The notes: generated from the sequence alone by a model not told the origin. A stretch of DNA of 32,093 nt from Candidatus Desantisbacteria bacterium (GCA_043806395.1 JAZDHC010000143.1:1-32093); one strand, 5' to 3'. Shown: positions 5,072 to 21,920, numbered from the stretch's first letter. Numbers and translations are program-made.

Positions 5072-6940
5072 TCATCCGCCCCACATCCAGATAACCAACA
5101 AGATAATTATTCCCACCATCATTGCCAGAATATATGATTGAATCAATCCTGTTTGTACTTTTCTGACAAATGAGCCGCATCCAGCCGTAACATTTGCCAC
5201 ACCATTTACTGTTCCATCAATTACGCACCTGTCAAACTTTACGCTGAATTTTGTCAAACCCACAAATGGCTTAACAATAACAACATCATATATTTCATCA
5301 AAGTAATACTTATTAAACACCAGCTTATAAATAAATGTTTTTTTAACAAAATCAAGATTGATAACCTTTATCCCATAAACCAACCATGCCGAAAGTATCC
5401 CTATGCCAGCCATGGAGAGTGAAATAAGCATAACTAACTGATGTCCTGAATGTTCCACTCCGTGATGAGCTGCATGTCCACTATCAAAGCAGACAAAGCT
5501 TTGGAACCAGTTATTTAAGTAAGGCGAACCAATAAACCCGGCTGTTATGGCTAAAAATGCCAGTATACACATGGGTATTGTCATTACCCATGGCGACTCA
5601 TGTGGATGAGCATCATGCTTTCTCGTCTCACCACCAAAGGTAACAAAGCAAAGCCTGAACATATAAAAGGCTGTCATCAATGCCCCAATTTCACCTATAA
5701 TAAATAATAGCATATGCCCCGAGGAATAAGCAGCCATTAATACCGTTTCCTTGCTCCAGAACCCGGCAAGGGGAGGCACTCCGGCAATGGCTAAGGAACC
5801 GATAATAAATACTATAGCTGTTATCGGCATTTTTTTACCCAGACCACCCATATCCCAGATATTATTGGAATGCATAGCATGGATAACACTCCCTGCTGCT
5901 AAGAATAAGAGTGCCTTGAAAAAGGCATGGGTTGTCAAATGAAACATCCCTGCAGAAAATCCGCCAACACCTAAGGCAAGCATCATATAACCGAGTTGGC
6001 TCAGGGTTGAGTAGGCAAGTACGCGTTTAATATCATTTTGACACAAACCAATGCTTGCCGCAAACAATGCTGTAAATCCTCCTACATACCCAACTACAAG
6101 TAATGCATTTGGTCCGGCATCAAACATGGTATATGTCCTTGCTACCAAAAACACACCGGCAACAACCATTGTTGCTGCATGGATTAAGGCAGAAACAGGG
6201 GAAGGACCCTCCATAGCATCTGGAAGCCATGTATGGAATGGAAACTGTGCTGATTTCCCCATTGCCCCTATGAATATCAAGACAGCCATTAGGGTCAAAA
6301 TTTGTGGACTAATCTGTCCCTCATGAATCAACCCCTCTATACTTAAGAAGTTGAATGTGCCAGTATAAAGTCCAATACATAAAATACCAATCAAAAATCC
6401 TGCATCTGCCAATCTGGTAATAATAAATGCCTTCTTTGCTGCTGCTGCTGCCGATGGTTTGTGATGCCAGAAACCAATCAACAGGTATGAACAAAGACCA
6501 ACAAGCTCCCAGCAGGCAAAAATCGTAATAAAGTTGTTTGCCAGAACCAAGCCAAGCATGGAGAATGTAAATAACGAGATGAATGAATAATACCTTGAAA
6601 AATCAATATTCTTCTCTGATGACAAGTACCCTCTGGAATATACCTGAATCATCAGGCTTATCATGGTTACTACAACCATCATAATTGAGGATAAAGGATC
6701 TACCAGCATCCCCATCTCAATCTGAAACTCACCGCTCTCAAACCATGGAAGGCTAAATTCATAATGTCTCTGCCCACTTATTGCCAACTCTCTTAATATC
6801 CCGCAAGCCATTGAAAATGATGCCAGCATTCCGACGATAGAAAGCCATGATGAAAGGTTTTTGAACCTTTTAATGAAAAAGGTAATAATCATAAACACTA
6901 TAAACGGTATTGCTGGAATTAACCATGCATTATTTATCAT
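5072..6940 (-). CDS. nuoL: NADH-quinone oxidoreductase subunit L
   Basis: WELVGLCSYLLIGFW, GKSAQFPFHTWLPDAMEGPSPVSALIHAATMV, HAFFKALLFL; start moved to ATG 6940, which has an AAAGGAG RBS. Confidence 0.95.
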   Translation of the reverse strand: MINNAWLIPAIPFIVFMIITFFIKRFKNLSSWLSIVGMLASFSMACGILRELAISGQRHYEFSLPWFESGEFQIEMGMLVDPLSSIMMVVVTMISLMIQVYSRGYLSSEKNIDFSRYYSFISLFTFSMLGLVLANNFITIFACWELVGLCSYLLIGFWHHKPSAAAAAKKAFIITRLADAGFLIGILCIGLYTGTFNFLSIEGLIHEGQISPQILTLMAVLIFIGAMGKSAQFPFHTWLPDAMEGPSPVSALIHAATMVVAGVFLVARTYTMFDAGPNALLVVGYVGGFTALFAASIGLCQNDIKRVLAYSTLSQLGYMMLALGVGGFSAGMFHLTTHAFFKALLFLAAGSVIHAMHSNNIWDMGGLGKKMPITAIVFIIGSLAIAGVPPLAGFWSKETVLMAAYSSGHMLLFIIGEIGALMTAFYMFRLCFVTFGGETRKHDAHPHESPWVMTIPMCILAFLAITAGFIGSPYLNNWFQSFVCFDSGHAAHHGVEHSGHQLVMLISLSMAGIGILSAWLVYGIKVINLDFVKKTFIYKLVFNKYYFDEIYDVVIVKPFVGLTKFSVKFDRCVIDGTVNGVANVTAGCGSFVRKVQTGLIQSYILAMMVGIIILLVIWMWGG

Positions 6941-7007
6941 GAAACACTCCTTTGTGTCAGTTATACTCTCCAAGTTCACAATCTGTAATTTTTGTGTCTT
7001 CGTGTGA

Positions 7008-7430
7008 TTATAAGGTTATATTCCTCATAATTGCAGCCAACTTTGGCTCTTTCTCTGCAAACTCACGCAATATCCTCTCTAATCTTCCTTCTCTTTCCTC
7101 TAACATTTCCATCTTCTTCACAGCAGGAGCAAGAGCTGTCCTCCTATCCCAGAGAACAAACCCTACCAGAGCAAACATACCTGATAAGATGACATAGAGA
7201 AGATTTCGGATATCATCTATCTGCTTCTGGGAATTTTTCTGTCCTTCCTCAATTCTGGCAACCCTTACATCAATATTGTTTATTCTTATATTAATATCGT
7301 TTAGTTTTTCATCTATTCTGTCCAGCTTCTCTAAAATCTGCCTGTTGGTAATCGTCTCTTCGGAGGAACCATTACTAACCAGCCCAAGAATCAAAAGAAA
7401 CAATATCGTTACAATGCGTATTCTTTTCAT
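7008..7430 (-). CDS. Hypothetical protein: N-terminal signal/TM segment, coiled coil, second TM helix
   Basis: MKRIRIVTILFLLILGLV, heptad-patterned LEKLDRIDEKLNDINIRINNIDVRVARIEE, hydrophobic LLYVILSGMFALVGFVLW; co-oriented and fills the nuoK-nuoL gap. Confidence 0.75.
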   Translation of the reverse strand: MKRIRIVTILFLLILGLVSNGSSEETITNRQILEKLDRIDEKLNDINIRINNIDVRVARIEEGQKNSQKQIDDIRNLLYVILSGMFALVGFVLWDRRTALAPAVKKMEMLEEREGRLERILREFAEKEPKLAAIMRNITL

Positions 7431-7438
7431 AACTGCCC

Positions 7439-7744
7439 CTACCACTTCATCAAATTAATATCCTCAACATTAATACTCTTCATATGCCGATAAGCTGACA
7501 GGATAATAGCCAATGCAACAGCTACCTCTGCTGCCTCAATAGCGATAACAAACATTGTAAAGATATGTCCTGTTAACATATGGGGATACAGATACTTAGT
7601 AAATGCTACAAAATTGATATTAGCTGCATTAAGCATCAACTCAATAGATAATAATATCATCACTGCATTCCGTCTGACCAGAACACCGTAGATTCCCAGA
7701 CAGAAGAATATGGCACTTAGTATTAAATAATTCGTCAGGCACAT
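7439..7744 (-). CDS. nuoK: NADH-quinone oxidoreductase subunit K
   Basis: RRNAVMILLSIELMLNAANINFV, AAEVAVALAI; 101 aa; AGGAGG RBS. Confidence 0.95.
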   Translation of the reverse strand: MCLTNYLILSAIFFCLGIYGVLVRRNAVMILLSIELMLNAANINFVAFTKYLYPHMLTGHIFTMFVIAIEAAEVAVALAIILSAYRHMKSINVEDINLMKW

Positions 7745-7765
7745 AATTAACGCCTCCTTACATGA

Positions 7766-9874
7766 TTAATAACTACTGTTTTTCCGTATTTCTGTGGCGA
7801 ATTTCCCTTCCCCCCACAACGCCCCTGTCGGACACGCTTCCACGCACTTACCACAAGAATCACACTCGGTTTCAGCCAATGGCTTGCCAAAGGTTGGCTC
7901 AATGGTTGTCTCAAACCCGCGATTAACAAAGCCGAGGGCACCAATCCCCTTTATCTCCAGACATATCCGTACACACTTGCCACACCTGACACATTTATTT
8001 GGATCCCGCAAGATAGCTGGATTGGAGCTATCTATTCTGTAATGATGTACCTTGCCGGATTTGAACCTATCCAGATCAACACCATATTCAATCCCGTACT
8101 TTCGCAAGGAACACTTATCAATGGCATTACATCCACACTCAAGGCAGCGGTTAGCCTCGGTTATGGCATTTACTTGCTTCAGTCCAAGCTCAACCTCATC
8201 AAAGCCCTTCAGCCTTTCCGCAATCTCAAGCTCTGGCATCCTTACCCGTGCCTGTTTTTCCACGCCCTCAAATTCGACACCATCAACTTCATCAAGACTG
8301 CCCTTGCTCACATTAAATATCAATGTCTCAGGGATAATCTTAAGCCCTCCTCGCAGGTATTGAGCAATCGAGTCAGCTGCTCTCTTACCACCAGCAATTG
8401 CCTCAATCACTGTTGACGCACCGCTTACCACATCACCAGCAGCAAACACACCAGCCCTGCCAGCACCCATATTATTATCAACTACTATTGTTTTGCCCCT
8501 GCCCAGATGAATGCCCTGTTCCTCAGCCAGACACGCAACCCCTGGAAACTGACCAATGGCTGCAATCACTGTATCAACAGCTATCGTAACCTCAGAGCCT
8601 TCAATGGGTACTGGCTTTCTCCTGCCGCTTGAGTCCGGCTCACCAAGCTCCATCCTGATACACTCAATCGCCTCTACCTTGCTATTTCCAATTACCCGTA
8701 CAGGGGCAGACAGGAAGTGAAACTGAACCCCCTCATGCTCTGCCTCATTAATCTCCACCTCATTAGCCGGCATCTCAGCCCTTGAGCGACGATATATCAG
8801 CATCACCTCATCTGCACCCAGCCGCAGGGATGTTCGAGCCGCATCAATGGCTGAATTCCCACCACCAATCACAGCTACTCTGCCCTTGAGTTTGATTTCC
8901 TTATTCAACCCCATATCCCGCAGGAAATCAATCGCAGATAGAACACCCTCAATCTCATCACCATTTACACCTAAACGAGAACTTCCGTGTGCCCCAATGC
9001 CAATAAACACTGCCTCAAAGCCATCACTCATCAGGCTGTCTATGGTAAAATCATTGCCAAGGGACATGTCACATTTTATTTCAACCCCATGTTTACAAAT
9101 ACCTGCAATCTCTTTATCTAACACATCTTTAGGCAACCTGTATTCTGGTATCCCATATCTCAGCATCCCGCCCGGTTCAGGCAATGCCTCAAATATTGTA
9201 CATTCATAACCCATGCCTGCCAGATAATAGGCACAACTCAATGAGGCAGGACCTGCCCCAATCAATGCCACTTTCTTGCCATTTTTTGACTGCTGACTGT
9301 TGACTGCCGACTGCTTATCAGGGCAGACACATAGGTCTGCCCCTACTTCCCAGTCTGCCACAAACCGTTTCAAGAAGTCAATTGCCACTGGTTCATCAAC
9401 CCTATTCCGTCTACACGCCAACTCACATGGTCTCACACAAACCCTGCCGCAAACTGCTGGCAATGGGTTATTTTCCCGTATAACTCGGGCAGCCTCTTGA
9501 TATTTACCCTCAGCTATCAACCCAATATAATCCTTAACCCTCACCCCTGCCGGACAAGCCATCTGGCATGGCGGCAGGCAATCACCATAATGGTCCGAAA
9601 AAAGCAACTCCAGACACAACTTGCGAGTTTCACGGATAAGCTCGCTCATGGTGGTAATTACCATGCCATCCCGCACCATCGTTGCACATGATGGAACCAA
9701 TGGTCTTCGTTCACCCTCAACCTCTACCACACACAGAAAACATGACCCAAATGGCAAAAGCTGTTTATCATGACAAAGGGTTGGGATATCAATCCCATTC
9801 AGCCTGGCTGCCTCCAGAATTGTTGCAGACTCATCCACCATATATTCTTGTTTATCTATAATTATTTTTACCAT
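7766..9874 (-). CDS. FAD/Fe-S NAD(P)H oxidoreductase: HydA/NuoG-type Fe-S scaffold with inserted GltD/NfnB-like domain (NfnA/NsoC-like, BfuA-type)
   Basis: N-terminal [2Fe-2S] (IPTLC..GSCFLCVVE..SC); ELLFSDH followed by a GltD-like block (PPCQMACP, VCGRVC, GAGPA, GGMLRYGIPEYRLP, GGGNSAID, YRRS, FAAGD); ends with RCLECGC and two ferredoxin motifs (KCVRCGKC, CDSCGKCVEACP). No H-cluster or Mo domain. Confidence 0.85.
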   Translation of the reverse strand: MVKIIIDKQEYMVDESATILEAARLNGIDIPTLCHDKQLLPFGSCFLCVVEVEGERRPLVPSCATMVRDGMVITTMSELIRETRKLCLELLFSDHYGDCLPPCQMACPAGVRVKDYIGLIAEGKYQEAARVIRENNPLPAVCGRVCVRPCELACRRNRVDEPVAIDFLKRFVADWEVGADLCVCPDKQSAVNSQQSKNGKKVALIGAGPASLSCAYYLAGMGYECTIFEALPEPGGMLRYGIPEYRLPKDVLDKEIAGICKHGVEIKCDMSLGNDFTIDSLMSDGFEAVFIGIGAHGSSRLGVNGDEIEGVLSAIDFLRDMGLNKEIKLKGRVAVIGGGNSAIDAARTSLRLGADEVMLIYRRSRAEMPANEVEINEAEHEGVQFHFLSAPVRVIGNSKVEAIECIRMELGEPDSSGRRKPVPIEGSEVTIAVDTVIAAIGQFPGVACLAEEQGIHLGRGKTIVVDNNMGAGRAGVFAAGDVVSGASTVIEAIAGGKRAADSIAQYLRGGLKIIPETLIFNVSKGSLDEVDGVEFEGVEKQARVRMPELEIAERLKGFDEVELGLKQVNAITEANRCLECGCNAIDKCSLRKYGIEYGVDLDRFKSGKVHHYRIDSSNPAILRDPNKCVRCGKCVRICLEIKGIGALGFVNRGFETTIEPTFGKPLAETECDSCGKCVEACPTGALWGEGKFATEIRKNSSY
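9287..9346 (-). repeat. In-frame GTAG-REP plus four 7-mers inside the flavoprotein gene
   Basis: Minus strand GTAGGGGCAGACCTATGTGTCTGCCCT (hairpin GGGCAGAC/GTCTGCCC), then GCAGTCG-GCAGTCA-ACAGTCA-GCAGTCA; encodes VGADLCVCPDKQSAVNSQQS. Confidence 0.75.
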
Positions 9875-9919
9875 AAATACTGCCTTAAATTCCTTTTATT
9901 ATGTAGATGCAGGTAACCA

Positions 9920-10054
9920 CTAACCTCTTCCTTGAATTTCACTAACCCTGATACTGTTTTGTATCTTTTTCTTATGATCGGAATATAAGGCTATCCCTAC
10001 CATTATAACACCAAATATAGCAATCATACCCATACCAATTAATATACTTTCCAT
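9920..10054 (-). CDS. Small single-pass membrane protein, 44 aa (below the ORF-track cut-off)
   Basis: Manual translation MESILIGMGMIAIFGVIMVGIALYSDHKKKIQNSIRVSEIQGRG*; purine-rich GAAGAAGGGAA upstream; TM helix followed by KKK. Confidence 0.6.
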   Translation of the reverse strand: MESILIGMGMIAIFGVIMVGIALYSDHKKKIQNSIRVSEIQGRG

Positions 10055-10107
10055 TTCCCTTCTTCTGTCAAGACAACTAATAATTATAATAGCCATAAAG
10101 CTGATAA

Positions 10108-11904
10108 CTAATTGCTTATGCCATACCTGTCCACCTTAATAATTGCTTCCAACTTGCATTTAGCCACACACTGCCCGCACCTGACACATTTATTCGCATC
10201 GATTACATGCAGTTTTTTCTTCTCCCCGATGATAGCCCCAGTTGGACATACCTTAATACACAGCCCACACCCTTTACAACGGTCATCAATGATGGCAAAC
10301 GATATTAATTCTTTACAAGCCTTTGCTGTACATCTACGATGCTTGATATGCAACTCATACTCATCCCTGAAATACCTCAAGGTTGTCAACACTGGATTTG
10401 GGGCAGTCTGCCCAAGCCCGCACAATGATGTATTTTTTACCTTTTGTGCCAAATTCTCCAATAATTCAATATCGCCTTCAACACCATGACCGGAGACTAT
10501 CCTTTCCAATATCTCCAGCATCCGTCTGGTGCCAATCCTGCAAAAAGTACATTTACCACACGATTCGTTTTGGGTAAAATTGAGAAAAAATCTGGCAATA
10601 TCTACCATACAGATGGTATCATCCATTACCACCATGCCACCTGAACCCATGATGGCACCAGTTTGGTTAATGGAATCATAATCAACCGGCGTATCAAGCA
10701 GACTTGATGGGATACACCCACCAGAGGGACCACCCATCTGAACTGCCTTAAACTCATGCTTGCCAGTGCCAGAGGTGCTACCTCCTACCCCGCCGCCAAT
10801 CCCAAAGATAACATCTCTCAGGCTCATGCCCATGGGAACCTCAACCAGACCACCTCGCTGTATCTTGCCAGCTAAGGCAAACACCTTTGTCCCCTTACTT
10901 TTTTCCGTACCAAAAGCGGCATAGCTTTCTGCCCCTTTCAGGATAATCCAGGGAATATTTGCCAATGTCTCTACATTGTTGATATTAGTCGGCTTACCAT
11001 ATAATCCGGAGATAGCTGGAAACGGTGGTCTTAACCGCGGCATCCCCCGTTTACCCTCAATAGAGGCAATCAAAGCTGTCTCCTCACCGCAGACAAAGGC
11101 GCCAGCCCCTTCCTTTATCAAAATCTCAAATCCAAAATCACTCCCACAGACATTTGGACCAATAACCCCGGTCTTCGTAGCCTGCTCAATGGCTATCCTC
11201 AGTCTCTTTATCGCCAATGGGTATTCAGCCCGAACATAAATATACCCATGATGGCTGCCGATAGCATAACCTCCAATAAGCATGCCCTCAATCACGCTAT
11301 GTGGATCACCCTCCAGCACACTTCTATCCATAAATGCACCCGGGTCACCCTCGTCTGCATTACAGATGAAATATTTTTCATCACCCGGGCTCTTTGCCGC
11401 AAATCCCCACTTTACTCCGGTGGGAAATCCGGCTCCACCTCGTCCACGCAAACCAGATTGAGTAATCTCATCAATTACTTGTGAGGGCGACATCTCCAAA
11501 AGCACCCGACGAATTGCCTTATAGCCATCCAGACTAATATATTCATCAATTGACTCCGGCGATATAACCCCACAGTTGCGAAGTACAATCCGTTTTTGTT
11601 TATTAAGACACTCCTCGTCTTCCAAAGAGATCAGCCATTCGGTAATGATCCTGCCATCAAGCACATGCTCATCAAGTATCCGCTCTACCATATCAGGGGT
11701 CACATGTTTATAGGTAACCTTTCCATCAGGCAAGATAACATCAACCAGCACTTCATTGTAGCACATGCCAATACAACCAGTCTCGGAAAGCACCACATCC
11801 AATTCACGGGTAGAAATCCCTTGCATCAATCGTTCATAAACCTTTTTGCCACCCGAGGCAATTCCACAACTGCCCAAACCAACAACAATATGTGCCTTCT
11901 GCAT
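10108..11904 (-). CDS. nuoF: NuoF/HydB(BfuB)-like flavoprotein, copy 2
   Basis: N-terminal thioredoxin-like Fe-S domain, GLRGRGGAGFP, CNADEGDPGAFMDRS, CGEETAL, GGPSGG, SCGKCTFCR, C-terminal 2x[4Fe-4S]. Confidence 0.92.
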   Translation of the reverse strand: MQKAHIVVGLGSCGIASGGKKVYERLMQGISTRELDVVLSETGCIGMCYNEVLVDVILPDGKVTYKHVTPDMVERILDEHVLDGRIITEWLISLEDEECLNKQKRIVLRNCGVISPESIDEYISLDGYKAIRRVLLEMSPSQVIDEITQSGLRGRGGAGFPTGVKWGFAAKSPGDEKYFICNADEGDPGAFMDRSVLEGDPHSVIEGMLIGGYAIGSHHGYIYVRAEYPLAIKRLRIAIEQATKTGVIGPNVCGSDFGFEILIKEGAGAFVCGEETALIASIEGKRGMPRLRPPFPAISGLYGKPTNINNVETLANIPWIILKGAESYAAFGTEKSKGTKVFALAGKIQRGGLVEVPMGMSLRDVIFGIGGGVGGSTSGTGKHEFKAVQMGGPSGGCIPSSLLDTPVDYDSINQTGAIMGSGGMVVMDDTICMVDIARFFLNFTQNESCGKCTFCRIGTRRMLEILERIVSGHGVEGDIELLENLAQKVKNTSLCGLGQTAPNPVLTTLRYFRDEYELHIKHRRCTAKACKELISFAIIDDRCKGCGLCIKVCPTGAIIGEKKKLHVIDANKCVRCGQCVAKCKLEAIIKVDRYGISN

Positions 11905-11916
11905 ACAATCTCCCTC

Positions 11917-12384
11917 TCAATAATTCTCCAACATCTCTTTAATCCTGTCCTCATTCAGCCTTCCATACACATCCTCATCAATCATAACCACAGGTGCCAG
12001 ACTACAACACCCAAGGCAAGAAACCTTATCAAGGGTAAACCTCATATCAGCGGTTGTGTTACCCGGCAAGACACCGAGTTTATCTGCCATAATCATGGTT
12101 ATGTTCTCTGCCCCGGACACATGACAGGCCGTACCATGACAGGCACGGATGATATGTTCACCAACAGGAGAAAACCTGAACTGGGTGTAGAATGTTGCTA
12201 CCCCATATACCTCACTTGGTTTTAATCCAAGACCATTTGCAACGATGGTCATGGATTCCTCGGATAAATACCCATACAACCCTTGTGCCTTTTGTAGCAC
12301 GGGTATGAGTCCACCTGATTTACCCTGATATTCAAAAAGGATATATGTCAATTCATCTTGATTTTTAGAACATTGGCATCCCAT
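11917..12384 (-). CDS. nuoE: NuoE/HydC(BfuC)-like [2Fe-2S] subunit, copy 2
   Basis: GVATFYTQF, CHGTACHV, SCLGCCSLAP. Confidence 0.92.
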   Translation of the reverse strand: MGCQCSKNQDELTYILFEYQGKSGGLIPVLQKAQGLYGYLSEESMTIVANGLGLKPSEVYGVATFYTQFRFSPVGEHIIRACHGTACHVSGAENITMIMADKLGVLPGNTTADMRFTLDKVSCLGCCSLAPVVMIDEDVYGRLNEDRIKEMLENY

Positions 12385-12386
12385 GG

Positions 12387-12911
12387 TTATTCTCCCTTCC
12401 TTCCAATCACTATCGCCCCAATCAATGCCACCAATAGTACAAATGAAACTAATTCAAATGGCAAGACGAATTGTCCTAATAATAATTTTCCAATTTGGGA
12501 TATATCACCAATAATTGGTACTGCTACCGTTTCATTCCATTTCATAGCCTTCAAGATATAAAAGATAAGGCAAAACAAAACACCTGAGGTAACTATTGCC
12601 ACCCCTTTTAATTGATTTCCCTGATGATTCGCCATGTCTGAAACCTTATAGGTCAACATGATAAGAAACATAAAGAGAACAACAATTGCCCCAACAAAGA
12701 TAAATACCTGAATGATTGCCAGAAACTCTGCATTAAGGGTAATAAACAACCCGGCTACACTCAAAAGAAACACAGCCAGAAATAATACTGCATGCACTAA
12801 ATTTCTCACTGTCACCACCAGCACACCGCAAACAATACCAATAGCTGCCAGCACGAAAAACGCCATATTTGGTAATAACCATGAACAAATAGCATCAATA
12901 TTTATCATCAT
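12387..12911 (-). CDS. nuoJ: NADH-quinone oxidoreductase subunit J
   Basis: RNLVHAVLFL, LNAEFLAIIQVFIFVGAIVVLF, LPFELVSFVLLVALIGAI; start uncertain (12908, 12911 or 12917). Confidence 0.93.
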   Translation of the reverse strand: MMINIDAICSWLLPNMAFFVLAAIGIVCGVLVVTVRNLVHAVLFLAVFLLSVAGLFITLNAEFLAIIQVFIFVGAIVVLFMFLIMLTYKVSDMANHQGNQLKGVAIVTSGVLFCLIFYILKAMKWNETVAVPIIGDISQIGKLLLGQFVLPFELVSFVLLVALIGAIVIGRKGE

Positions 12912-12919
12912 ATCCACCC

Positions 12920-13414
12920 CTATCTGGTTTTAAGTACTACGCCTTCCAGACCTGTCAATCTTTGCTGCAAATCAATAAGTAAATTCTTCAACATCCCTAT
13001 CTCTTCTATTTGGACATTGACCAGCCTGTCTTTTTCTGTAACCTTCAAATGCTCCTCAACCACTGTCTCGGTTTGAACCACCCTTCTCCACATCATTACC
13101 CACTGCCCGGCCAATCCGGCCAGCACCATGAGTACTGCACCAAAGGTAACCTGAAGCCAGAACATCATATCCCCAAATCGATTATTCGTATCATTAAGTC
13201 GCTGATCCATAGCCGTAAACCGTTGATCCATACTTTTTTCCATAGCCACAAACCGTTGATTTATCATTTGTTCCAAACTATCCAGCCTTGTCTCAATCTT
13301 AGCCAGTCTTACTTCAACACTTGTTTCTCCTTGTGTCGCATACACCAACTGTGTATTGCCCAACAAACAACATATTCCTGCCACAATCAGTATGCTTTGC
13401 TTAATCCACATCAC
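12920..13414 (-). CDS. Hypothetical protein: signal peptide, coiled coil with xxQRF-like repeats, TM helix
   Basis: GAGGAGGA RBS; INQRFVAMEKS-MDQRFTAMDQR-LNDTNNRF; TM WLQVTFGAVLMVLAGLAGQW; fills the nuoH-nuoJ gap. Confidence 0.8.
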   Translation of the reverse strand: MMWIKQSILIVAGICCLLGNTQLVYATQGETSVEVRLAKIETRLDSLEQMINQRFVAMEKSMDQRFTAMDQRLNDTNNRFGDMMFWLQVTFGAVLMVLAGLAGQWVMMWRRVVQTETVVEEHLKVTEKDRLVNVQIEEIGMLKNLLIDLQQRLTGLEGVVLKTR

Positions 13415-13424
13415 TGCATCCTCC

Positions 13425-14483
13425 TCATATCAACACCATCACCAATCCAGTCAATCCAATATTCAAAAACGCAAGCGGCAGCAATACCTTCCAGCCAAAC
13501 CCCATCAATTGATCCACTCGAATGCGGGGGTATGTCCATCTAAACCATATAAATAAAAACACAATCGCATATGTCTTTGCCAAGAACCATACAATTGGTG
13601 GCAAAGACAGAGGAATTCCGGGTATCCCATTCCATCCGCCCAAAAACAGTGTAGCACAAACAGCTGAAGCAACAAACATATTGGCATATTCAGCCAGGAA
13701 AAACATGGCAAACTTAATGCCGCCATATTCGGTATGAAATCCAGCAATCAGTTCTGATTCTGCCTCAGGCAAGTCAAATGGTGCCCGATTACATTCTGCA
13801 ACTGCTGCAATGATAAACAAAATAAATGCCAGAGGTTGTTTGATAATATACCAGCAATCCTGCTGGCTAACAATAATATCACTCAGTTTCAAAGAGCCAG
13901 CCAACATTATTACCCCAATCACTGAAAGGCTCATAGCCAGTTCATAGCTCACAATCTGGGCACTGGAACGAATCCCGCCAAGCAGGGAATACTTATTCCC
14001 GGATGACCAGCCAGCCATGATTATGCCGATAACCCCTATGCTGCCAACAGCCATGAGATAAAGCACGCCAAGGTTTAAATCCCTGACAATCAAGCCCGGT
14101 GACCATGGCAGGACAACATAAGCCATCACCGCCGGAGACATAACAATCACTGGTGCCAGAAAAAATGTCCATTTATCCGCTACCTTAGGCATAATATTTT
14201 CTTTAAGTAATAGCTTAATTGCATCAGCTGCTGTCTGCAATATTCCAAAGGGTCCAACTCGTGTTGGTCCAAGCCTGTCTTGTATATAGCCGGCAATCTT
14301 GCGTTCAGCCAGAACAAGCATCATAGCATTAACCGAGATAAATCCACCAATCACGGATAATGCTACAACCATGGCTACCACGCTTACCACTAAAACAGGT
14401 GGCAGGTGATATGCTTCACACATATTCACCAGCCAATACTGGATATTGTCTACTAATTGTTGTGTATTATATAAAAACTGCAT
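13425..14483 (-). CDS. nuoH: NADH-quinone oxidoreductase subunit H
   Basis: ERKIAGYIQDRLGP, ADAIKLLLKE, NRAPFDLPEAESEL, YPRIRVDQLM. Confidence 0.96.
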   Translation of the reverse strand: MQFLYNTQQLVDNIQYWLVNMCEAYHLPPVLVVSVVAMVVALSVIGGFISVNAMMLVLAERKIAGYIQDRLGPTRVGPFGILQTAADAIKLLLKENIMPKVADKWTFFLAPVIVMSPAVMAYVVLPWSPGLIVRDLNLGVLYLMAVGSIGVIGIIMAGWSSGNKYSLLGGIRSSAQIVSYELAMSLSVIGVIMLAGSLKLSDIIVSQQDCWYIIKQPLAFILFIIAAVAECNRAPFDLPEAESELIAGFHTEYGGIKFAMFFLAEYANMFVASAVCATLFLGGWNGIPGIPLSLPPIVWFLAKTYAIVFLFIWFRWTYPRIRVDQLMGFGWKVLLPLAFLNIGLTGLVMVLI

Positions 14484-14835: not shown

Positions 14836-15306
14836 CTACTTATACCTCGTAACCTCCGGCTCCTTTGTCAACCCTTCAATATCATATATCATTTTATCTC
14901 GACTATAGCAAGCCATTTCATAACAACCAGTCATACGGATAGCATCCTTTGGGCATGCCTCCACGCACAACCCACAGAATATACACCTTGATATATCAAT
15001 AATATAGCTTTCAACCTTTTTATCACAGCCTTGTACATCCGGCTCATCCATAACTACGGTTGTAATCTTGATTGCCTCAGCCGGGCAATATCTGGCACAT
15101 AATCCACAGCCAACGCACAACAATTGCCCATTCTCATCCACATTCAATCTTTGTAACCCACGGAATCCTTCTGCTACAGGCATTCTCTGGGTTGGATACT
15201 GAATGGTCACTGATGGCGTAAAAAGATGCTTAAAGGTTACTAATAGACCATGAATTAATTCTATGATAATTGTAAAAAAACCTATCTTTGGTGTATACTG
15301 TTTCAT
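14836..15306 (-). CDS. nuoI: NADH-quinone oxidoreductase subunit I
   Basis: VTIQYP, FRG, CVGCGLCARYCP and CIFCGLCVEACP; ATG 15306 overlaps the nuoG stop (ATGA). Confidence 0.93.
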   Translation of the reverse strand: MKQYTPKIGFFTIIIELIHGLLVTFKHLFTPSVTIQYPTQRMPVAEGFRGLQRLNVDENGQLLCVGCGLCARYCPAEAIKITTVVMDEPDVQGCDKKVESYIIDISRCIFCGLCVEACPKDAIRMTGCYEMACYSRDKMIYDIEGLTKEPEVTRYK

Positions 15307-17756
15307 TTTAATAACTCCACATTTCCCTTTACAGGCATCATCTCTTTCCCAAACAAACACATTATATTCATTGTTGGATACAAATGAACAACCCCAACCC
15401 CATCAGGTACATCATGGCTTGCCCTTGCCTTTAGCTCAATTCGTGCATTCTTGGAGGAAACCATAACCATGTCTCCATCCTTTATCCCCAACCTCAAAGC
15501 TTCATCAATGCCTATCTCTACGCAAGCATCACCTATCTCAAGTAAGGTTGGACTCCATGCACCAAATGAGCCAGAATATAAATGGGATGGGCTGGATACT
15601 AACAGCAACCCATCATCAGCCATTATCCCCTCACACTCAACCGGGATGAATTTACCCTTCCAATCCTTAAGTGAAAAGGGAGAAGGGCTACTCACCTTTA
15701 TCTCCTGTTGCACATCCTCTGTCGCTTCACAACCAAGTTGCTTGCAGAAATCCATAAATATTTCCAAATCTGTCCTGCTTTCCCCAACGCAAGGCAACAC
15801 CTTGTTTAATCTCTGCACCCTTCGCTCCAGATTTGTATTTGTTCCATCCTTCTCCGCAAAGCTACAGGCTGGCAGAACCACATCAGCCATATCAGCCGTA
15901 GTGGTCATAAACATATCCTGCACTACAAGGAATTCCATGGCATCCAAAGCCTTTCTCATATTAGTGAACGGATAGGTAAGCAAAGGATTTTCGCCCACGA
16001 TATACATTGCCTTTAGTTTGCCATACTCAAGCATTTCCATAGCATCAAGCCCTGGCTTATCTACAGGCACATACCCGGGTAAAAACCCTGGTACTGCTCC
16101 CATGTTAAGTGCCCCTTGTGAGTTATTCTTTTCCGGCAGGATATACACCCCGCAGGACTGCCTGCCGATATTTCCGGTAAGTAACGCCAGATTGCTTGCT
16201 GCACAGGCAATATCATGGTCATTTCCAACCAACCCCACACCCGTAGCCACAATAATGCAGGCATTAGCTGCCTCAGCATAAGTTTTGGCGGCTAATTCAA
16301 TGGCAAGAGGCTTAATCCCACATACCCTTTCCACATATTCAGGGGTATATTTTTCTATCGATGCTTTTAGCTCAGCAAGCCCTTCGGTTTTGTTATTAAC
16401 AAAGGTTGTATCAGCCAATTCAAGCCTGATTATCTGATTTATAATCCCATTAATCAAGGCAACCTCTGTTCCTGGCTTAATTATGAGGCTATCCTGTGCC
16501 TGACGGCTAAGCAGTGTCCTTTTATTATCTACTACAATCAACTTTGCCCTGTTTCGATTAACAGCCAAGTTTACCTCTATCCTGACATTTGGATGTGTCT
16601 CATTAAGGTTAGCCCGCACCAACAAGATAGCGTTTGCCTTTCTAATCTCATGCAGGAAATTGGTTGAGCAAGCCACACCAAGGCTTTCCCTTAAACCCAA
16701 TAATCCCTGATACCTGCCACCATGATCAATATTATTCGTTCCTATCCCCTGCCTGATCAATCGTTGAAAGAGATATAGCTCTTCATTGGTCAATCTGGCA
16801 GAGCCAAGCCCACCAATAGAATCTGCCCCGGATGCAGCCTTTATTTCATTAAACCGTGACACCACAAGCCCCAGAGCCTCATCCCAGCCAACCTCTTCAA
16901 ATAGTCCATTCCTTTTCACCAACGGCTTTTTTAATCTCTTCGGGCTACTGATAAACTCATATCCAAACCTGCCCTTAGAGCAAAGATTACCCTCATTTAT
17001 TCCAATATCATAATCACCTGTAACCCGCTGTATCTTATTATCCTTAAGTCCCAGCACAAGTGAACACCCATTTGAACAATAGGGACAAATTGTTGTTTTA
17101 TTCTCAAGATCCCATACGCGTGCCTTATATTTGAACATTTTTGAGTTCAATGCCCCAACCGGACACACAGAGATACACTGCCCACAAAATTCACAACTCA
17201 TAGGACGGTCAAAGTCCGTACCAATATATGTCTTAATTCCTCGATTGATAAAGCTAATCTCCCCTACACCCTGTATCTCGTTACAGATTCGTACGCATTT
17301 GCCACAGAGAACACATCGATTCATATCTCGTTCAATAAATGGTGAAAGCCTTTCCACTGCCTTTTTAACAGCCTTCATACGATATGGATTATCAACTACC
17401 CCATATTCATACACCAGATCCTGCAACTGACACTCCCCTGCCTTATCACACACAGGGCAATCAAGTGGGTGTTCTGCAAGAATAAGCTGAAGCTGTGCCC
17501 GTCTTGCCTCAATTATCTCAGGGCTATTGGTAATTATCTCCATTCCATCCTTGACCGGATTAAAACAGGCTGGTATCAATGCCTTGCGACCCTTAAGCTG
17601 AACCACACACATACGGCAGGCACCAAAGCCAATCAGCCGTTTGTCTGCACAAAGGGCAGGTATTTTTACACCAGCCTTCTGTGCTGCCTCAAGGATCATT
17701 GTTCCCTTTTTGACTGTTATCTGTTTTTTATCAATTGTTAGTGTAATTTCTGACAT
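15303..17756 (-). CDS. nuoG: NuoG-like subunit (Fe-S domain plus molybdopterin-oxidoreductase fold, FdhA-like but lacking the catalytic Cys/Sec)
   Basis: GACRMCVV, HPLDCPVCDKAGECQLQD, RCVLCGKCVRIC, CEFCGQCISVCP, CPYCSNGC..LC; NNIDHGGRY where FDH has NNIDHC/U. Confidence 0.85.
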   Translation of the reverse strand: MSEITLTIDKKQITVKKGTMILEAAQKAGVKIPALCADKRLIGFGACRMCVVQLKGRKALIPACFNPVKDGMEIITNSPEIIEARRAQLQLILAEHPLDCPVCDKAGECQLQDLVYEYGVVDNPYRMKAVKKAVERLSPFIERDMNRCVLCGKCVRICNEIQGVGEISFINRGIKTYIGTDFDRPMSCEFCGQCISVCPVGALNSKMFKYKARVWDLENKTTICPYCSNGCSLVLGLKDNKIQRVTGDYDIGINEGNLCSKGRFGYEFISSPKRLKKPLVKRNGLFEEVGWDEALGLVVSRFNEIKAASGADSIGGLGSARLTNEELYLFQRLIRQGIGTNNIDHGGRYQGLLGLRESLGVACSTNFLHEIRKANAILLVRANLNETHPNVRIEVNLAVNRNRAKLIVVDNKRTLLSRQAQDSLIIKPGTEVALINGIINQIIRLELADTTFVNNKTEGLAELKASIEKYTPEYVERVCGIKPLAIELAAKTYAEAANACIIVATGVGLVGNDHDIACAASNLALLTGNIGRQSCGVYILPEKNNSQGALNMGAVPGFLPGYVPVDKPGLDAMEMLEYGKLKAMYIVGENPLLTYPFTNMRKALDAMEFLVVQDMFMTTTADMADVVLPACSFAEKDGTNTNLERRVQRLNKVLPCVGESRTDLEIFMDFCKQLGCEATEDVQQEIKVSSPSPFSLKDWKGKFIPVECEGIMADDGLLLVSSPSHLYSGSFGAWSPTLLEIGDACVEIGIDEALRLGIKDGDMVMVSSKNARIELKARASHDVPDGVGVVHLYPTMNIMCLFGKEMMPVKGNVELLK

Positions 17757-17802: not shown

Positions 17803-19608
17803 CTAATCTATCGCATCAAACTTACAAGCTGTAATACAAGATCTGCACATAGTACATTTTTCCCGATCAATAATTGCTACCTGCTTTTTCTCCCACACAA
17901 CAGCGTTTGAGGGACAAGCCTTAAAGCACACTCCGCACATCTTACATTTTTCTTCATTTACCTCAAATTTTATCAGATCAATACAAACCCTGGACGGACA
18001 TCGTTTTTCCTTGATATGAGCATCATACTCATCCCTGAAATAGCGAATGGTTGAAAGTATTGGATTGGCTGCTGTTTGACCAAGCCCACAGTGTGATGTA
18101 TTTTTTATATGCCTGCCAAGCTGTTCCAAAAATTCAATGTCCCCTTCCTGTCCCCTGCCAGCAACAATATCCTCAAGTTTATTGAGCATAACCCTTAATC
18201 CAATTCGACAGGGCACGCACTTACCACAGGATTCATCTACAGAAAAATCCGTAAAAAATCGGGCTGTATCAACCATACAGGTAGCATCATGCATAATTAC
18301 CACACCGCCAGAGCCCATCATGGCTCCAGCAGAGGTGAGTGAATCAAAATCTATGGTTATATCAAGCAGACTCTCTGGTATGCACCCACCAGATGGACCA
18401 CCAAGCTGTGCTGCCTTAAATTTTCGTTTGTTTGAGATGCCTCCGCCAATATCAAATACCAATGCCCTTAAGGATGTACCCATAGGCACTTCAACCAATC
18501 CAACATTATTTATTGCCCCGGTTAAGGCAAAGACCTTTGTGCCCTTGCTTCCCTCCGTGCCAATAGAGGCAAACCATGCCCCGCCATTAAGGATAATCTG
18601 TGGCACATTGGCAAATGTTTCAACATTGTTCAAGTTGGTTGGCTGTCCCCAGAGCCCTGATTCAGAAGAGCGGGGTGGTTTTATCCTCGGCATACCCCGT
18701 TTACCCTCAATAGAGTACATCAAGGCACTTGACTCACCACAAACAAATGCACCAGCACCTGGATATATCTCAATATCAAAATTAAAATCAGTACCAAAGA
18801 TATTTTTACCAAGCAATCCATATTCTCTTGCCTGCTCAATAGCTATATTTAATCTGTGAATAGCAAGCGGATATTCTGCCCGCACATAAATATACCCCTT
18901 TTCCACACCACCAATGGCATAGGCTGAGATAGCCATGCCTTCTAAAACCGCATGAGGGTCAGCCTCTAAGACTGATCTATCCATAAATGCACCCGGGTCA
19001 CCCTCATCACCATTGCAGACCGTATACTTTGGAAAATTCTTATACTTTCGGCACTCTTCCCACTTTTTCCCGGTTGGAAATCCGCCGCCGCCACGGCCCC
19101 GTAAGCCAGAGATAATCATCTCATTGATAACATCCTCTGGAGTCATCCCGGTTAATATTTTAGCCAATGCCTGATACCCATCACGGGCAATGTATTCGTC
19201 GATTTTCTCAGCATCAATCAGTCCACGATTCCGCAGGGCACGCAATACTTGATGTTTGAAGAACGGAATATCACTTATCAGGGGAACAGCCTCTTTTTCT
19301 GTTGGTGGGGTATACATTAAGTCCTTTACAGGCCGTCCCTTTAAGAAATGCTCTTCTACTAATAATGGTATATCCTCTGGCTTAAGGGAATGATAAAATA
19401 TACCCTCTGGATAAACTACAAATAATGGACCCTTAGCACAAAAGCCATTACAACCAGTTAAGGTTATCTGGATTTCTCTCTGGAGATCCTTTTTCTGTAA
19501 TTCATCCTCTAATGCCGTTTTTATCTTTGATGCACCACAAGCAACACAACCTGTGCCAGCACAAATTAATATATTAGCTCGAAATTGCGTCATTTCTTTC
19601 TCCCTCAT
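17803..19608 (-). CDS. nuoF: NuoF/HydB(BfuB)-like flavoprotein, copy 1
   Basis: N-terminal CAGTGC..GCNGFC [2Fe-2S], GLRGRGGGGFP, CNGDEGDPGAFMDRS, CGESSAL, GGPSGG, SCGKCVPCR, C-terminal 2x[4Fe-4S]. Confidence 0.92.
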   Translation of the reverse strand: MREKEMTQFRANILICAGTGCVACGASKIKTALEDELQKKDLQREIQITLTGCNGFCAKGPLFVVYPEGIFYHSLKPEDIPLLVEEHFLKGRPVKDLMYTPPTEKEAVPLISDIPFFKHQVLRALRNRGLIDAEKIDEYIARDGYQALAKILTGMTPEDVINEMIISGLRGRGGGGFPTGKKWEECRKYKNFPKYTVCNGDEGDPGAFMDRSVLEADPHAVLEGMAISAYAIGGVEKGYIYVRAEYPLAIHRLNIAIEQAREYGLLGKNIFGTDFNFDIEIYPGAGAFVCGESSALMYSIEGKRGMPRIKPPRSSESGLWGQPTNLNNVETFANVPQIILNGGAWFASIGTEGSKGTKVFALTGAINNVGLVEVPMGTSLRALVFDIGGGISNKRKFKAAQLGGPSGGCIPESLLDITIDFDSLTSAGAMMGSGGVVIMHDATCMVDTARFFTDFSVDESCGKCVPCRIGLRVMLNKLEDIVAGRGQEGDIEFLEQLGRHIKNTSHCGLGQTAANPILSTIRYFRDEYDAHIKEKRCPSRVCIDLIKFEVNEEKCKMCGVCFKACPSNAVVWEKKQVAIIDREKCTMCRSCITACKFDAID

Positions 19609-19617
19609 CCCTTTTCC

Positions 19618-20001
19618 TCAATATGTCGCTTCATTACCAATTCCCAGGGCATATTCTTCTACAATGTTCCCACCAATAACATGTTCTAAAAGTATCTTTT
19701 TAATCTTCTCTCCATCTAAATCAACATATTTCACCGGTGACTTTCCTGCTAATTCAACAGTTACCATTGGTTCGCGACTACATAAACCAGCACAACCAGA
19801 GGTAGTAACAGTAACATCTGTCATGTTTTGTTGCATGATTTCATCCATTAAGGCAGACATTACCCCTCTTGCACCAGAGGCAATACCACATGTCCCCATG
19901 TGAATAATAAATCTCGCTCGATAACCACCCTCTCGCAGGGTACTTGTTGCCTTATATTGTTCCTTAATCTTTATTAAATCATCAATAGTTAACTTTGCCA
20001 T
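19618..20001 (-). CDS. Thioredoxin-like (2Fe-2S) ferredoxin, HydD/HndB-like subunit
   Basis: IHMGTCGIASGAR, TSGCAGLCSREPMVTV, HVIGG; ATG 20001 with GAGGGG RBS. Confidence 0.88.
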   Translation of the reverse strand: MAKLTIDDLIKIKEQYKATSTLREGGYRARFIIHMGTCGIASGARGVMSALMDEIMQQNMTDVTVTTSGCAGLCSREPMVTVELAGKSPVKYVDLDGEKIKKILLEHVIGGNIVEEYALGIGNEATY

Positions 20002-20002
20002 A

Positions 20003-20230
20003 TTAAAAATCACCCCTCAATCGTTCATGGATAAACCTTATTATCGCTGGTAGATTTCCTGATTCTGCCTGTATCATGGTTGTATCAAGCAGAGTTATGG
20101 TCTCTGCTATCCCAATTATATCCAACCCTTTTAATTTTGCCTGCCTCACAATTGCCCTTGGTGACATCTCCAGCTCAGCACAAGGTGACAGGCAAGTATG
20201 AATATGGAGATCTGTCTTAAATATTCTCAT
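20003..20230 (-). pseudogene. Truncated PHP-domain gene, probably a deletion fusion
   Basis: DLHIHTCLSPC..MSP..IV..A..KGLDIIGI is a PHP N-terminus, but the expected TDH and the rest of the domain are missing (75 aa only). Confidence 0.7.
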
Positions 20231-20495
20231 TTCTGATGCCAAGCTGGTACAATTTACCTGCCAACTCAAAGGCAGGCAATTGGCTCACCAAAATAGTTAT
20301 TCCTTCCTGTTTTGCTTTTTCCAGGGTATCTTCTGCTGGTTGTCGATTATTTACTAATATAATTCCCGATAATTCCTTTAAAACAGCCACAGCCACGATA
20401 TTCTGATGAACTTGCAGGGTAATCCAGACATTTCCCCTTTGAGCATGAGCAATGACATCAGACAATAAATCAGAAACATAACCGCCGCTTAATAT
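20217..20495 (-). pseudogene. DRTGG-domain protein lacking its N-terminus
   Basis: The frame extends upstream of the tracked start as LSGGYVSDLLSDVIA, then VWITLQVHQNIVAVA; an in-frame TGA lies inside the 20500-20540 palindrome and there is no ATG/RBS. Confidence 0.7.
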
Positions 20496-20499
20496 TTTT

Positions 20500-20540
20500 G
20501 GTGATCAGTTATCGGTATTTACTACCGATAACTGATCACC
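20500..20540. repeat. Perfect 18-bp-stem palindrome built from 7-mer units
   Basis: GGTGATCAGTTATCGGTA-TTTAC-TACCGATAACTGATCACC. Confidence 0.9.
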
Positions 20541-20610
20541 GATTACTATTTGACCACTCCGCCTGACAACTTGTTATTCTCATTCAAATCATGCCCGGAT
20601 AAATAGCCAA

Positions 20611-20892
20611 CTATTTACCCTTCTCATCTTCATCCTCATCTTCATCCCAATCATCCTCATCCTCATCCTCATCCCAATCATCCTCATCCTGTCCATGTCC
20701 CACAGACGATAATCCCTTAGCTACCTCTGCCACCAACCGAAAACATGACAGTTCACATAATCCGGTTGTTTCTAATATCTCCGGCATATGCTCTCCTACA
20801 TTTGACAGGTAAGCAACGCAACTCTCATCACACACCCTTTCCATATAACAACATTTTTTCTCTTTCTTTACCTCTGTCTTACAACAACCCAT
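20611..20892 (-). CDS. Small Cys-rich protein with a highly acidic C-terminal tail
   Basis: AGGAGG RBS; 8 Cys (CC, CC-x5-C-x3-C, C-x3-C); tail with (DEDDWDEDE)-like repeats. Confidence 0.75.
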   Translation of the reverse strand: MGCCKTEVKKEKKCCYMERVCDESCVAYLSNVGEHMPEILETTGLCELSCFRLVAEVAKGLSSVGHGQDEDDWDEDEDEDDWDEDEDEDEKGK

Positions 20893-20893
20893 T

Positions 20894-21910: not shown

Positions 21911-21920
21911 TTTTCTTCTC

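Follow-up and report, generated by a model that had tools for sequence, protein, structure and literature searches.

The closest described relatives of the system treated here are three solved enzymes of the NfnABC/StnABC kind: NfnABC from Caldicellulosiruptor saccharolyticus (PDB 9bov), StnABC from Sporomusa ovata (8oh5) and NfnABC from Thermococcus sibiricus (9n5u). All three have been assayed, with NADPH oxidized and ferredoxin reduced only when NAD+ is present (PMC11829005, PMC12018979, PMC9304861, PMC10482914). A second described relative is Nuo-Bfu, a complex I predicted to oxidize NADH and reduced ferredoxin together while reducing menaquinone (PMC9304861). We analyzed a window of 32,093 nucleotides (nt), the whole stretch of DNA under study, which is contig C143 of a 2.73-Mb, 98.7% complete metagenome-assembled genome of a Candidatus Desantisbacteria bacterium. 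Within its nuo operon, a cassette encoding a NuoE-like protein (NuoE2), a NuoF-like protein (NuoF2) and a protein of 702 amino acids (aa; P702) lies between nuoJ and nuoK. The comparisons below give good support to the view that this trio is a Bfu-family, NADPH-dependent transhydrogenase of the NfnABC/StnABC kind, the activity itself being predicted. Our literature search returned no account of an Nfn-type cassette inside a nuo operon; it did not take in the supplementary clade tables of the Bfu paper, which may bear on this point.

Composition of the cassette

All three proteins matched chains of the solved enzymes. For P702 the matches were 9bov_A (E = 2e-206), 8oh5_C (3e-181) and 9n5u_A (3e-177), with residues 1-699 aligning to positions 3-684 of the 1178 in 9bov_A. 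NuoF2 matched 8oh5_B and 9bov_B (both 7e-260) and 9n5u_B (4e-248), with residues 6-590 covered, and NuoE2 matched 9n5u_C (5e-47), 8oh5_A (4e-45) and 9bov_C (7e-45). An AlphaFold2 model of P702, built from a 20-row alignment (predicted local distance difference test score, pLDDT, 78.8), was compared by Foldseek with the A-subunit chains of 9bov, 8oh5 and 9n5u, giving query-normalized template modeling (TM) scores of 0.86, 0.85 and 0.86 over ~690 columns; NfnL, GltD and DPD reached 0.53-0.55, through the flavoprotein part only.

Pfam placed Fer2_4 (residues 1-77), Fer4_20 (100-177), Pyr_redox_2 (201-495) and Fer4_Nqo3 (619-686) along P702. The predicted layout comprises an N-terminal [2Fe-2S] domain, an inserted GltD/NfnL-like FAD/NADPH domain with two [4Fe-4S] clusters, a His-ligated cluster and a 2x[4Fe-4S] ferredoxin-like domain. 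The initial annotation had described a GltD-like FAD domain spliced into a HydA/NuoG scaffold, with a His before the insert and the remaining Cys after it, and our alignments bear this out. Residues 1-101 and 575-700 map to positions 1-99 and 95-221 of the HydA, HoxU and NuoG models of NCBIfam; because the two ends of the protein fall on consecutive model positions, the GltD-like part is an insert at the His-cluster motif, with H95 ahead of it and C577, C580, C582 and C588 behind it, all five invariant among 20 homologues. The GGGNSAID and YRRS motifs reported for the FAD domain are present, again in invariant columns. P702 had also been described as lacking an H-cluster or molybdenum domain, and Pfam indeed found no hydrogenase or molybdopterin domain in it (no Molybdopterin or Molybdop_Fe4S4 match), unlike the operon's 817-aa NuoG. 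Scores for P702 fell below the cut-offs of the NuoG model TIGR01973 (114 bits against 470, with only residues 4-104 matched) and of the GltD models TIGR01317 (199 against 448) and TIGR01318 (307 against 483).

Invariance among the 20 homologues extends to Y361-R362-R363, to every cluster cysteine of P702, and to K169 and R246. The last two, at functionally probed positions, correspond to K170 of the Sporomusa ovata enzyme (Sov), the Lys ligand of the FAD-proximal cluster, and to Sov R239, an Arg near the FAD (PMC10482914). In NuoE2, Cys82/87/123/127 are spaced like the cluster ligands C74/79/115/119 of the Thermococcus C subunit (PMC12018979). The sites predicted for NuoF2 are FMN, the B1 cluster, a Zn site and a C-terminal 2x[4Fe-4S] domain: C432, H519, C525 and C530 align to the Zn (B2) site of 9n5u_B (C437, H524, C529 and C534), a family-typical set of one His and three Cys (PMC12018979), and two CX2CX2CX3C motifs occupy Cys543/546/549/553 and Cys573/576/579/583. 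Residues 6-100 of NuoF2 align to the N-terminal domains of the three NfnB/StnB chains and share a C13...C44-x3-C48 pattern; this three-Cys site may hold either Zn or a [2Fe-2S] cluster. The trio has the parts of a Bfu core, namely a B subunit with an FMN/NADH core and a di-cluster ferredoxin domain, the Zn site, and a thioredoxin-like C subunit. Of the features particular to NfnABC, the A-subunit scaffold with its GltD insert, the Lys and the Arg are present, and the Cys partner and the FdhF-like domain are absent. The earlier proposal of a three-subunit NfnABC/Bfu-type enzyme with an NADPH-binding GltD-type domain is therefore upheld by sequence and fold matches, together with the either/or distribution with NfnSL described below.

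According to its open reading frames (ORFs), translations, Pfam and NCBIfam, a single minus-strand nuo operon fills nearly the whole window (Table 1). It runs nuoA, nuoB, nuoC, a coiled-coil ORF, nuoD, an aspartic-protease-like ORF and nuoE1; then a Cys-rich ORF, DRTGG-like and PHP-like fragments, a thioredoxin-like ferredoxin, nuoF1 and nuoG; and finally nuoI, nuoH, a coiled-coil ORF, nuoJ, nuoE2, nuoF2, the P702 gene, nuoK, a coiled-coil ORF, nuoL, nuoM and nuoN. The splitting of nuoJ from nuoK by the three cassette genes, as first noted, is exact in its coordinates, and so is the start of nuoE2 2 nt past the nuoJ stop, the junction reading TAA CC ATG with a GGAAGGGAGA stretch within the final nuoJ codons, ahead of nuoE2. 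The gap between nuoE2 and nuoF2 is 12 nt, and that between the P702 gene and nuoK is 21 nt and bears a TAAGGAGG motif. GC content at third codon positions (GC3) is 0.42-0.44 in the cassette genes, inside the operon's range of 0.27-0.46, and hence gives no sign of foreign origin. A scan of 6900-13500 for promoters and terminators, by consensus only and compared with shuffled sequence, returned 23 promoter-like sites (14.4 +/- 3.7 in shuffles) and five terminator-like sites (4.0 +/- 2.1), with none of either kind on the minus strand of the spacer between nuoF2 and the P702 gene.

Table 1 Coordinates of features in the window and at related loci
Feature	Position	Strand	Evidence
Three coiled-coil ORFs, 145-164 aa, one hydrophobic helix each	23393-23845, 12920-13414, 7008-7445	-	Read from translations
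Clan-AA aspartic-protease-like ORF, 146 aa, between nuoD and nuoE1	21491-21931	-	
N-module genes, including 93-aa Cys-rich ORF, DRTGG-like and PHP-like fragments, 131-aa thioredoxin-like ferredoxin	17803-21472	-	Pfam, NCBIfam
NuoE1	20894-21472	-	
NuoF1, 601 aa, Bfu-type	17803-19608	-	
NuoG, 817 aa, full molybdopterin-like domain	15303-17756	-	Pfam Molybdopterin 3e-60, Fer2_4, NADH-G_4Fe-4S_3, Fer4_Nqo3
nuoJ, 176 aa, upstream flank of insertion	12387-12917	-	Pfam Oxidored_q3 1e-35
NuoE2, 155 aa, NfnC/StnA-type [2Fe-2S] subunit	11917-12384	-	Pfam 2Fe-2S_thioredx 4e-50
NuoF2, 598 aa, NfnB/StnB-type bifurcating core subunit	10108-11904	-	Complex1_51K, NADH_4Fe-4S, two Fer4
Spacer between nuoF2 and P702 gene, 233 nt	9875-10107	-	Contains 58-aa ORF, 9920-10096
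P702 gene, 702 aa, short NfnA/StnC-type subunit	7766-9874	-	
nuoK, 101 aa, downstream flank of insertion	7439-7744	-	Pfam Oxidored_q2 4e-29
Passenger sites in relatives' nuo operons	L083 8327-9098; L085 1899-2670; L086 8054-8561; L088 8407-9294; L089 3582-4664; L014 4720-5320 and 7321-7955; L010 4328-4897		Sequence motif
Chloroflexota (RBG_16_72_14, Limnocylindria) nuo clusters, P702-like protein at nuoG place	L175 2574-17517; L152 1303-9292; L164 4752-11324		

The initial annotation had counted the small ORF in the spacer as a member of the cassette, a view that did not hold up. We found no family match for this 58-aa ORF at E<0.05 and no tblastn match at any related locus, and in four relatives' loci the NuoF2 and P702 matches lie 34 to ~850 nt apart. 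In one relative the equivalent of the spacer holds a nucleotidyltransferase/HEPN-like pair (here and below, passenger ORFs in relatives' nuo operons were read by sequence motif alone). With neither conservation nor a family, a fourth subunit is ruled out, and the ORF is probably not a gene.

Distribution, position and transcription

Across 25 genomes of the phylum, we found a P702 ortholog in 16 (15 full length, one cut by a contig end), and the NfnS small subunit scored above its NCBIfam cut-off in exactly the other nine (396-422 against 220 bits). The best NfnS match in the 16 P702-bearing genomes was 165 bits, below that cut-off. All nine NfnS-bearing genomes have a 454-463-aa NfnL-type gene that passes TIGR01316, with NfnS beside it in seven of the nine annotated stretches; of the remaining two genomes, one has NfnS on NfnL's contig and the second has it on another contig. 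Every genome thus carries one type and none carries both (25/25). These genomes are relatives and therefore non-independent, and the switch between NfnABC and NfnSL occurs both between families and within one family. The same exclusivity has been described in Thermococcaceae (Schut et al., PMC9304861), and the either/or distribution argues for an Nfn function of the trio.

The position between nuoJ and nuoK is confined to one genus. nuoJ and the cassette share a contig in five of its six genomes, and the cassette is followed by nuoK in five of six; each missing link is a contig end, and no genome contradicts the position. Identity of nuoJ in the five other genomes of the genus is 84-94%, and the cassette proteins have diverged to 78-85% identity with the position kept in all six. 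Outside the genus, nuoJ and nuoK follow one another without the cassette at all 15 nuoJ loci fetched, either directly adjacent or with 0.5-1.2 kb of other genes between them. The initial annotation had asked whether relatives have contiguous nuoJ and nuoK: the cassette is absent from every such locus, and strict contiguity is lost at some of them.

Elsewhere in the phylum, four genomes from three other families (G012, G013, G015 and G022) have the orthologous trio by itself on another contig, and nuoF2 and the A-subunit gene occur together in a further one (G021). In family f6 an A-like gene was found without an E or F neighbor on the stretches examined, and the sister family f2 has NfnSL instead of the cassette. 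The neighbors of the stand-alone trio in G012 and G015 give no clue to its role: PPDK, a response regulator, a DUF4160 protein with an unassigned ORF, CutA1, aspartate-semialdehyde dehydrogenase and transketolase. In a FastTree phylogeny, a clade of 19 rows unites the A subunits of the genus with their orthologs from families f3 and f4, and a second clade holds those from f6 and f7. From these sequences, the cassette of the genus may have been either inherited and then moved or acquired from a related lineage. In a separate observation, the stand-alone B subunit of G012 (L072 6688-8541) is nearer to NuoF1 (57% identity, with an N-terminal 2Fe-2S_thioredx domain) than to NuoF2, and another genome of the same family has an F2-like B subunit (67% identity); by sequence, the B subunit seems to have been exchanged in this family.

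One RNA-library contig (2114 nt, 0 mismatches) covers 10527-12640 and so links nuoJ, nuoE2 and nuoF2; runs X2-X4 gave short pieces only. Contig depths were 231 on the P702 gene, 24 on nuoE2/F2 and 15 on nuoK, values not usable to rank expression, and a 37-nt conserved stretch within the P702 gene (9311-9347) draws hundreds of foreign RNA-library contigs. Linkage of cassette expression to complex I is supported by synteny and weakly by RNA. The suggestion in the initial annotation that the insertion is tied to complex I expression accordingly finds backing in the genus-specific position, the tight spacing and the 2114-nt contig.

In other phyla we inspected 80 loci with P702 relatives, 53 of them full length; E and F lie upstream in 43 of the 53, and complex I genes lie nearby at eight. 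Among these are Chloroflexota nuo clusters with a P702-like protein at the place of nuoG (Table 1) and no nuoG match in the fetched loci. At L175 this protein has 835 aa and sits between a short NuoF and nuoJ; NuoI-like sequence is found at its C-terminus and in an E-like ORF, and the genome has no other NuoH and no NuoI-like match beyond that contig. We found no paper on Chloroflexota complex I operons with a Stn/Nfn-derived module. Two further arrangements were seen. At seven Bacteroidota loci (L023, L026, L027, L034, L043, L044 and L047), a GltD/NfnL-like gene comes immediately after an Mbx/Ech-like cluster (NuoN/L/H/B/D/I-like); these loci look like the mbx-like operon with a gltD-related flavoprotein (PMC4758237). 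A four-gene cluster in Ktedonobacteraceae (L154-L156), without membrane nuo genes nearby, encodes a NuoB-like protein, a 246-aa protein without assignment, a short NuoF-like protein and, at 802 aa, a P702-like protein that includes a di-cluster region.

Coupling to complex I and alternative readings

The operon's own N-module bears on what the cassette might do. In the PDB, NuoF1 scores best with bifurcating HydB, at 812 bits for chain 7t2r_B and 807 for 7q4v_B, compared with 386 bits for the canonical NuoF 2fug_1, and the protein has an N-terminal thioredoxin-like domain with a [2Fe-2S]-type Cys pattern and a C-terminal di-cluster domain. NuoG also matches Molybdop_Fe4S4 and Molydop_binding in Pfam and scores 467 bits against the TIGR01973 cut-off of 470. 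By sequence, then, NuoE1 and NuoF1 appear to be of the bifurcating type, and the complex a predicted Nuo-Bfu. Short ORFs of the DRTGG-like and PHP-like kinds typify operons for Bfu hydrogenases. The order DRTGG-PHP-E-Fdx-F recurs at a Planctomycetales locus (L021), where a split pair, GltD-like plus NuoG-like, comes next. The window's genome has a single NuoH and one UbiA-type prenyltransferase, and neither Rnf nor an [FeFe] hydrogenase was found in it at 98.7% completeness. GltD-like sequence recurs in this genome (G000): a 594-aa DsrL-like GltD paralogue adjoins a DsrB-like gene on contig C142 (L004), and the further modules, on contigs C295 (L003, L005 and L007) and C30 (L002), are an NuoF-GltD fusion of at least 942 aa that precedes a 902-aa frame with NuoG-like sequence, and a GltD-like stretch within a 1530-aa open frame.

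We regard it as reasonably probable that the cassette is a soluble-type NfnABC that moved into the nuo operon, is co-transcribed with it, and works on the donor pair of complex I. We infer the activity, its direction, the soluble state and the coupling alike. The predicted reaction is 2 NADPH + NAD+ + oxidized ferredoxin <-> 2 NADP+ + NADH + reduced ferredoxin. By analogy with the solved enzymes, NADPH would reduce the FAD in the GltD/NfnL-like domain of P702, from which electrons would pass through the Lys-ligated cluster, the second [4Fe-4S] cluster, the His-ligated cluster, the ferredoxin-like cluster and the [2Fe-2S] cluster to an FMN/[4Fe-4S]/[2Fe-2S] bifurcation site built by NuoF2 and NuoE2. 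The FMN would pass electrons to NAD+, and the C-terminal 2x[4Fe-4S] domain of NuoF2 would pass them to ferredoxin. On this reading, in one genus of uncultured groundwater bacteria, belonging to a Desantisbacteria-related phylum, the cassette would have moved from a stand-alone site to the gap between nuoJ and nuoK, where it would be co-transcribed with complex I. Since the operon's NuoE1/F1 are also of the bifurcating type, the two enzymes most likely act as separate complexes on the same pair, NADH and reduced ferredoxin. The Nfn would turn NADPH into both donors of a confurcating complex I, or consume them to make NADPH: in series, Nfn and Nuo-Bfu would amount to NADPH:quinone oxidoreduction, and in the opposite direction they would compete for the same donor pair. 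The cassette thus probably ties the NADPH pool to the proton pump, and functional coupling to complex I can reasonably be inferred.

Several observations weigh against this picture. Nuo-Bfu is itself only a prediction (PMC9304861). The RNA library may contain carried-over DNA, and no RNA-library contig bridges the junction of the P702 gene with nuoK, where 7691-7854 is uncovered. Sov C114, proposed to act with K170 at the FAD-proximal cluster (PMC10482914), is V113 in P702, and the Caldicellulosiruptor protein keeps the Cys. P702 terminates 15 residues past its ferredoxin-like domain, and the solved A chains extend 260-490 residues further into an FdhF/NuoG-like domain, the alignments ending at 684/1178 and 672/1172. 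This domain lies off the electron path, mediates tetramer formation and helps hold the C subunit (PMC11829005, PMC10482914); its deletion from Sporomusa StnC (aa 683-1172) left no active, assembled complex (PMC10482914), and the N-terminal domain of Caldicellulosiruptor NfnC occupies a cleft that it partly forms (PMC11829005). By analogy, the short A subunit may assemble differently or require another component. Finally, the nuo operons of the phylum take up many unrelated genes, so the position of the cassette may be incidental.

Short A subunits are not particular to this genus. Among the 120 best database relatives, 33 are short forms (<=725 aa), and the label "short" changes at least 10 times on a tree of 129 rows, with a separate Dehalococcoidales short-form clade nested among long forms; the tree is a quick one, made with FastTree alone, and truncated gene calls may account for some of the "short" proteins. 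We conclude only that the short A subunit recurs across several clades and is, to judge from these sequences, evidently viable.

The extent of gene uptake bears directly on whether the address means anything. Gaps between relatives' nuo genes hold nucleotidyltransferase/HEPN-like, RelE-like and DUF4160/DUF2442-like pairs, a tandem Usp-like protein and a Uma2-like nuclease, and in one genome of the genus the cassette itself contains two such passenger pairs. The three coiled-coil ORFs of the window may be accessory subunits or passengers: BLASTP detected no relatedness among them, and Pfam returned chance-level coiled-coil matches and a weak XhlA match (26 bits, cut-off 35). The one before nuoJ is kept at two of three relatives' spanning loci, the third matching its last 37 residues only, and a relative of the one after nuoK sits in the nuo operons of two other families. 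An ORF 31% identical to the aspartic-protease-like one lies after nuoK in two sister-family genomes (L083 9505-9894; L085 1114-1503). A working soluble NfnABC could have landed neutrally, with shared transcription as its only link to complex I; such toxin-antitoxin-, stress- and nuclease-like ORFs occupy relatives' gaps, that between nuoJ and nuoK among them, the window's operon has its own coiled-coil membrane ORFs and protease-like ORF, the cassette stands alone in other families, and its GC3 is that of the operon. We consider an incidental address unlikely, given that the position has been kept in all six genomes of the genus despite the divergence of its proteins, that the spacing is as tight as 2, 12 and 21 nt, that both modules are Bfu-type with the same substrate pair, and that NADPH-linked Stn/Nfn-like modules occur in nuo operons of unrelated phyla.

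A closer association with complex I can also be imagined. Docking of the cassette on complex I through its NuoG-like scaffold, as the initial annotation ventured, is unsupported: the operon has a full NuoE/F/G set, the trio stands alone elsewhere, and the in-operon copies have no added domain. It is improbable that the cassette forms a dedicated NADPH front end of the Bfu-type complex I, docked on the peripheral arm or held in a transient supercomplex; in that case NuoE1/F1/G would receive NADH and reduced ferredoxin directly, the whole operon would specify an NADPH:menaquinone proton pump, and loss of the FdhF-like domain would free the A subunit for association. We find it quite improbable that P702/NuoE2/NuoF2 is a second input module, docking on complex I or feeding it directly as an NADPH alternative to NuoE1/F1/G. 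The absence of the FdhF-like domain that stabilizes the soluble Sporomusa enzyme (PMC10482914) would suit such a module, as would the two Chloroflexota operons (L175 and L152) where a P702-like protein occurs with no nuoG match, the NuoI-like sequence fused at L175, and the Mbx-like operons in which GltD-like subunits replace NuoI (PMC4758237). Yet here NuoE1-F1-G is complete in the same operon and NuoI is present too, orthologous trios are found apart from nuo genes in three other families, and P702 has no NuoG C-terminal domain. Moreover, NuoF2 is a full Bfu-type NfnB-like protein, as opposed to the ~410-450-aa NuoF beside the Chloroflexota proteins, and in-operon orthologs (686-711 aa) match stand-alone ones (687-708 aa) in length, without the ~100-aa Chloroflexota C-terminal extension. 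We judge it highly improbable that the trio, rather than acting as a transhydrogenase, is a reductase of sulfur/polysulfide or another acceptor that depends on NAD(P)H, the role first reported for Thermococcus litoralis NsoABC. NsoC is named among the closest StnC homologues (PMC10482914), and the DsrB-like gene beside the DsrL-like paralogue on contig C142 would fit, but the exclusion of NfnSL in 25/25 genomes favors an Nfn function, the Thermococcus sibiricus homologue has been shown to be a genuine Nfn (PMC9304861), and, both in the window and on the stretches annotated in G012 and G015, the trio has no sulfur genes beside it.

If the soluble NfnABC reading holds, one operon pairs a predicted Nuo-Bfu with an Nfn-type enzyme that would make its two substrates from NADPH, a concrete and testable arrangement. 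With the Chloroflexota operons, it would extend a pattern of complex I operons gaining NADPH-linked Stn/Nfn-type modules in uncultured phyla unrelated to one another; should the address prove incidental, what is left is a new, short member of a known enzyme family. Natural short A subunits, apparently arisen several times, run counter to the simplest interpretation of the deletion made in Sporomusa, and structural studies could take them as a minimal NfnABC.

Comparison with known systems

NfnABC/StnABC (9BOV/9BP5, 8OH5 and 9N5U) share with the cassette the C-B-A gene order, the GltD/NfnL-like insert at the His-cluster motif of a NuoG/HydA-like scaffold, the Lys cluster ligand, the Arg near the FAD and the YRR motif. 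The B subunits are of similar size (584-602 aa, 598 aa here), both with the Zn-site His/Cys and the C-terminal 2x[4Fe-4S] domain. The A subunits differ, with 963-1178 aa in the known enzymes and 702 aa here, where the FdhF/NuoG-like C-terminal domain and its cluster are missing; further differences are the replacement of Sov C114 by Val and the location inside a nuo operon, and the activity of the enzyme described here is a predicted one. NfnSL/NfnAB (Thermotoga maritima 4YLF and Pyrococcus furiosus 5JCA), which takes the place of the NfnABC type across the phylum, catalyzes the same overall reaction, and its NfnL resembles the GltD-like part of P702 (E 9e-100; target-normalized TM-score 0.80-0.81). 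NfnSL, however, bifurcates at the large-subunit FAD and has no NuoE/F-like core, whereas the FAD domain here is predicted to feed electrons only. HoxU of [NiFe] NAD-reducing hydrogenases corresponds in extent to the P702 scaffold minus its insert, with residues 580-700 on 100-221 of the 238-position model NF005745, but HoxU has no flavin domain and serves a hydrogenase, and P702 scores 161 bits against a cut-off of 333.

Among complex I-like systems, the predicted 14-subunit Nuo-Bfu with its BfuABC input shares with the window a Bfu-type NuoF1 and NuoE1 at the place of nuoEFG (PMC9304861). Nuo-Bfu as described has one Bfu module, and the window's operon adds a second, Nfn-type module further down; the phyla listed for clades 38 and 39 do not include that of the window (PMC9304861). 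Mbx-like operons in which a GltD-related flavoprotein replaces NuoI likewise combine an NAD(P)H-binding GltD-type module with complex-I-like membrane subunits, but their GltD-like protein is alone, without the NuoE/F core or the NuoG-like scaffold (PMC4758237). The Chloroflexota loci L175, L152 and L164 also have a P702-like protein (40-44% identity, same domain order, no molybdenum-like domain) with NuoE/F-like genes in a nuo operon. There the module replaces NuoG, NuoF is short and non-Bfu, and NuoI-like sequence is fused to flanking proteins, whereas in the window NuoE, NuoF, NuoG and NuoI are all present and the cassette sits between nuoJ and nuoK.

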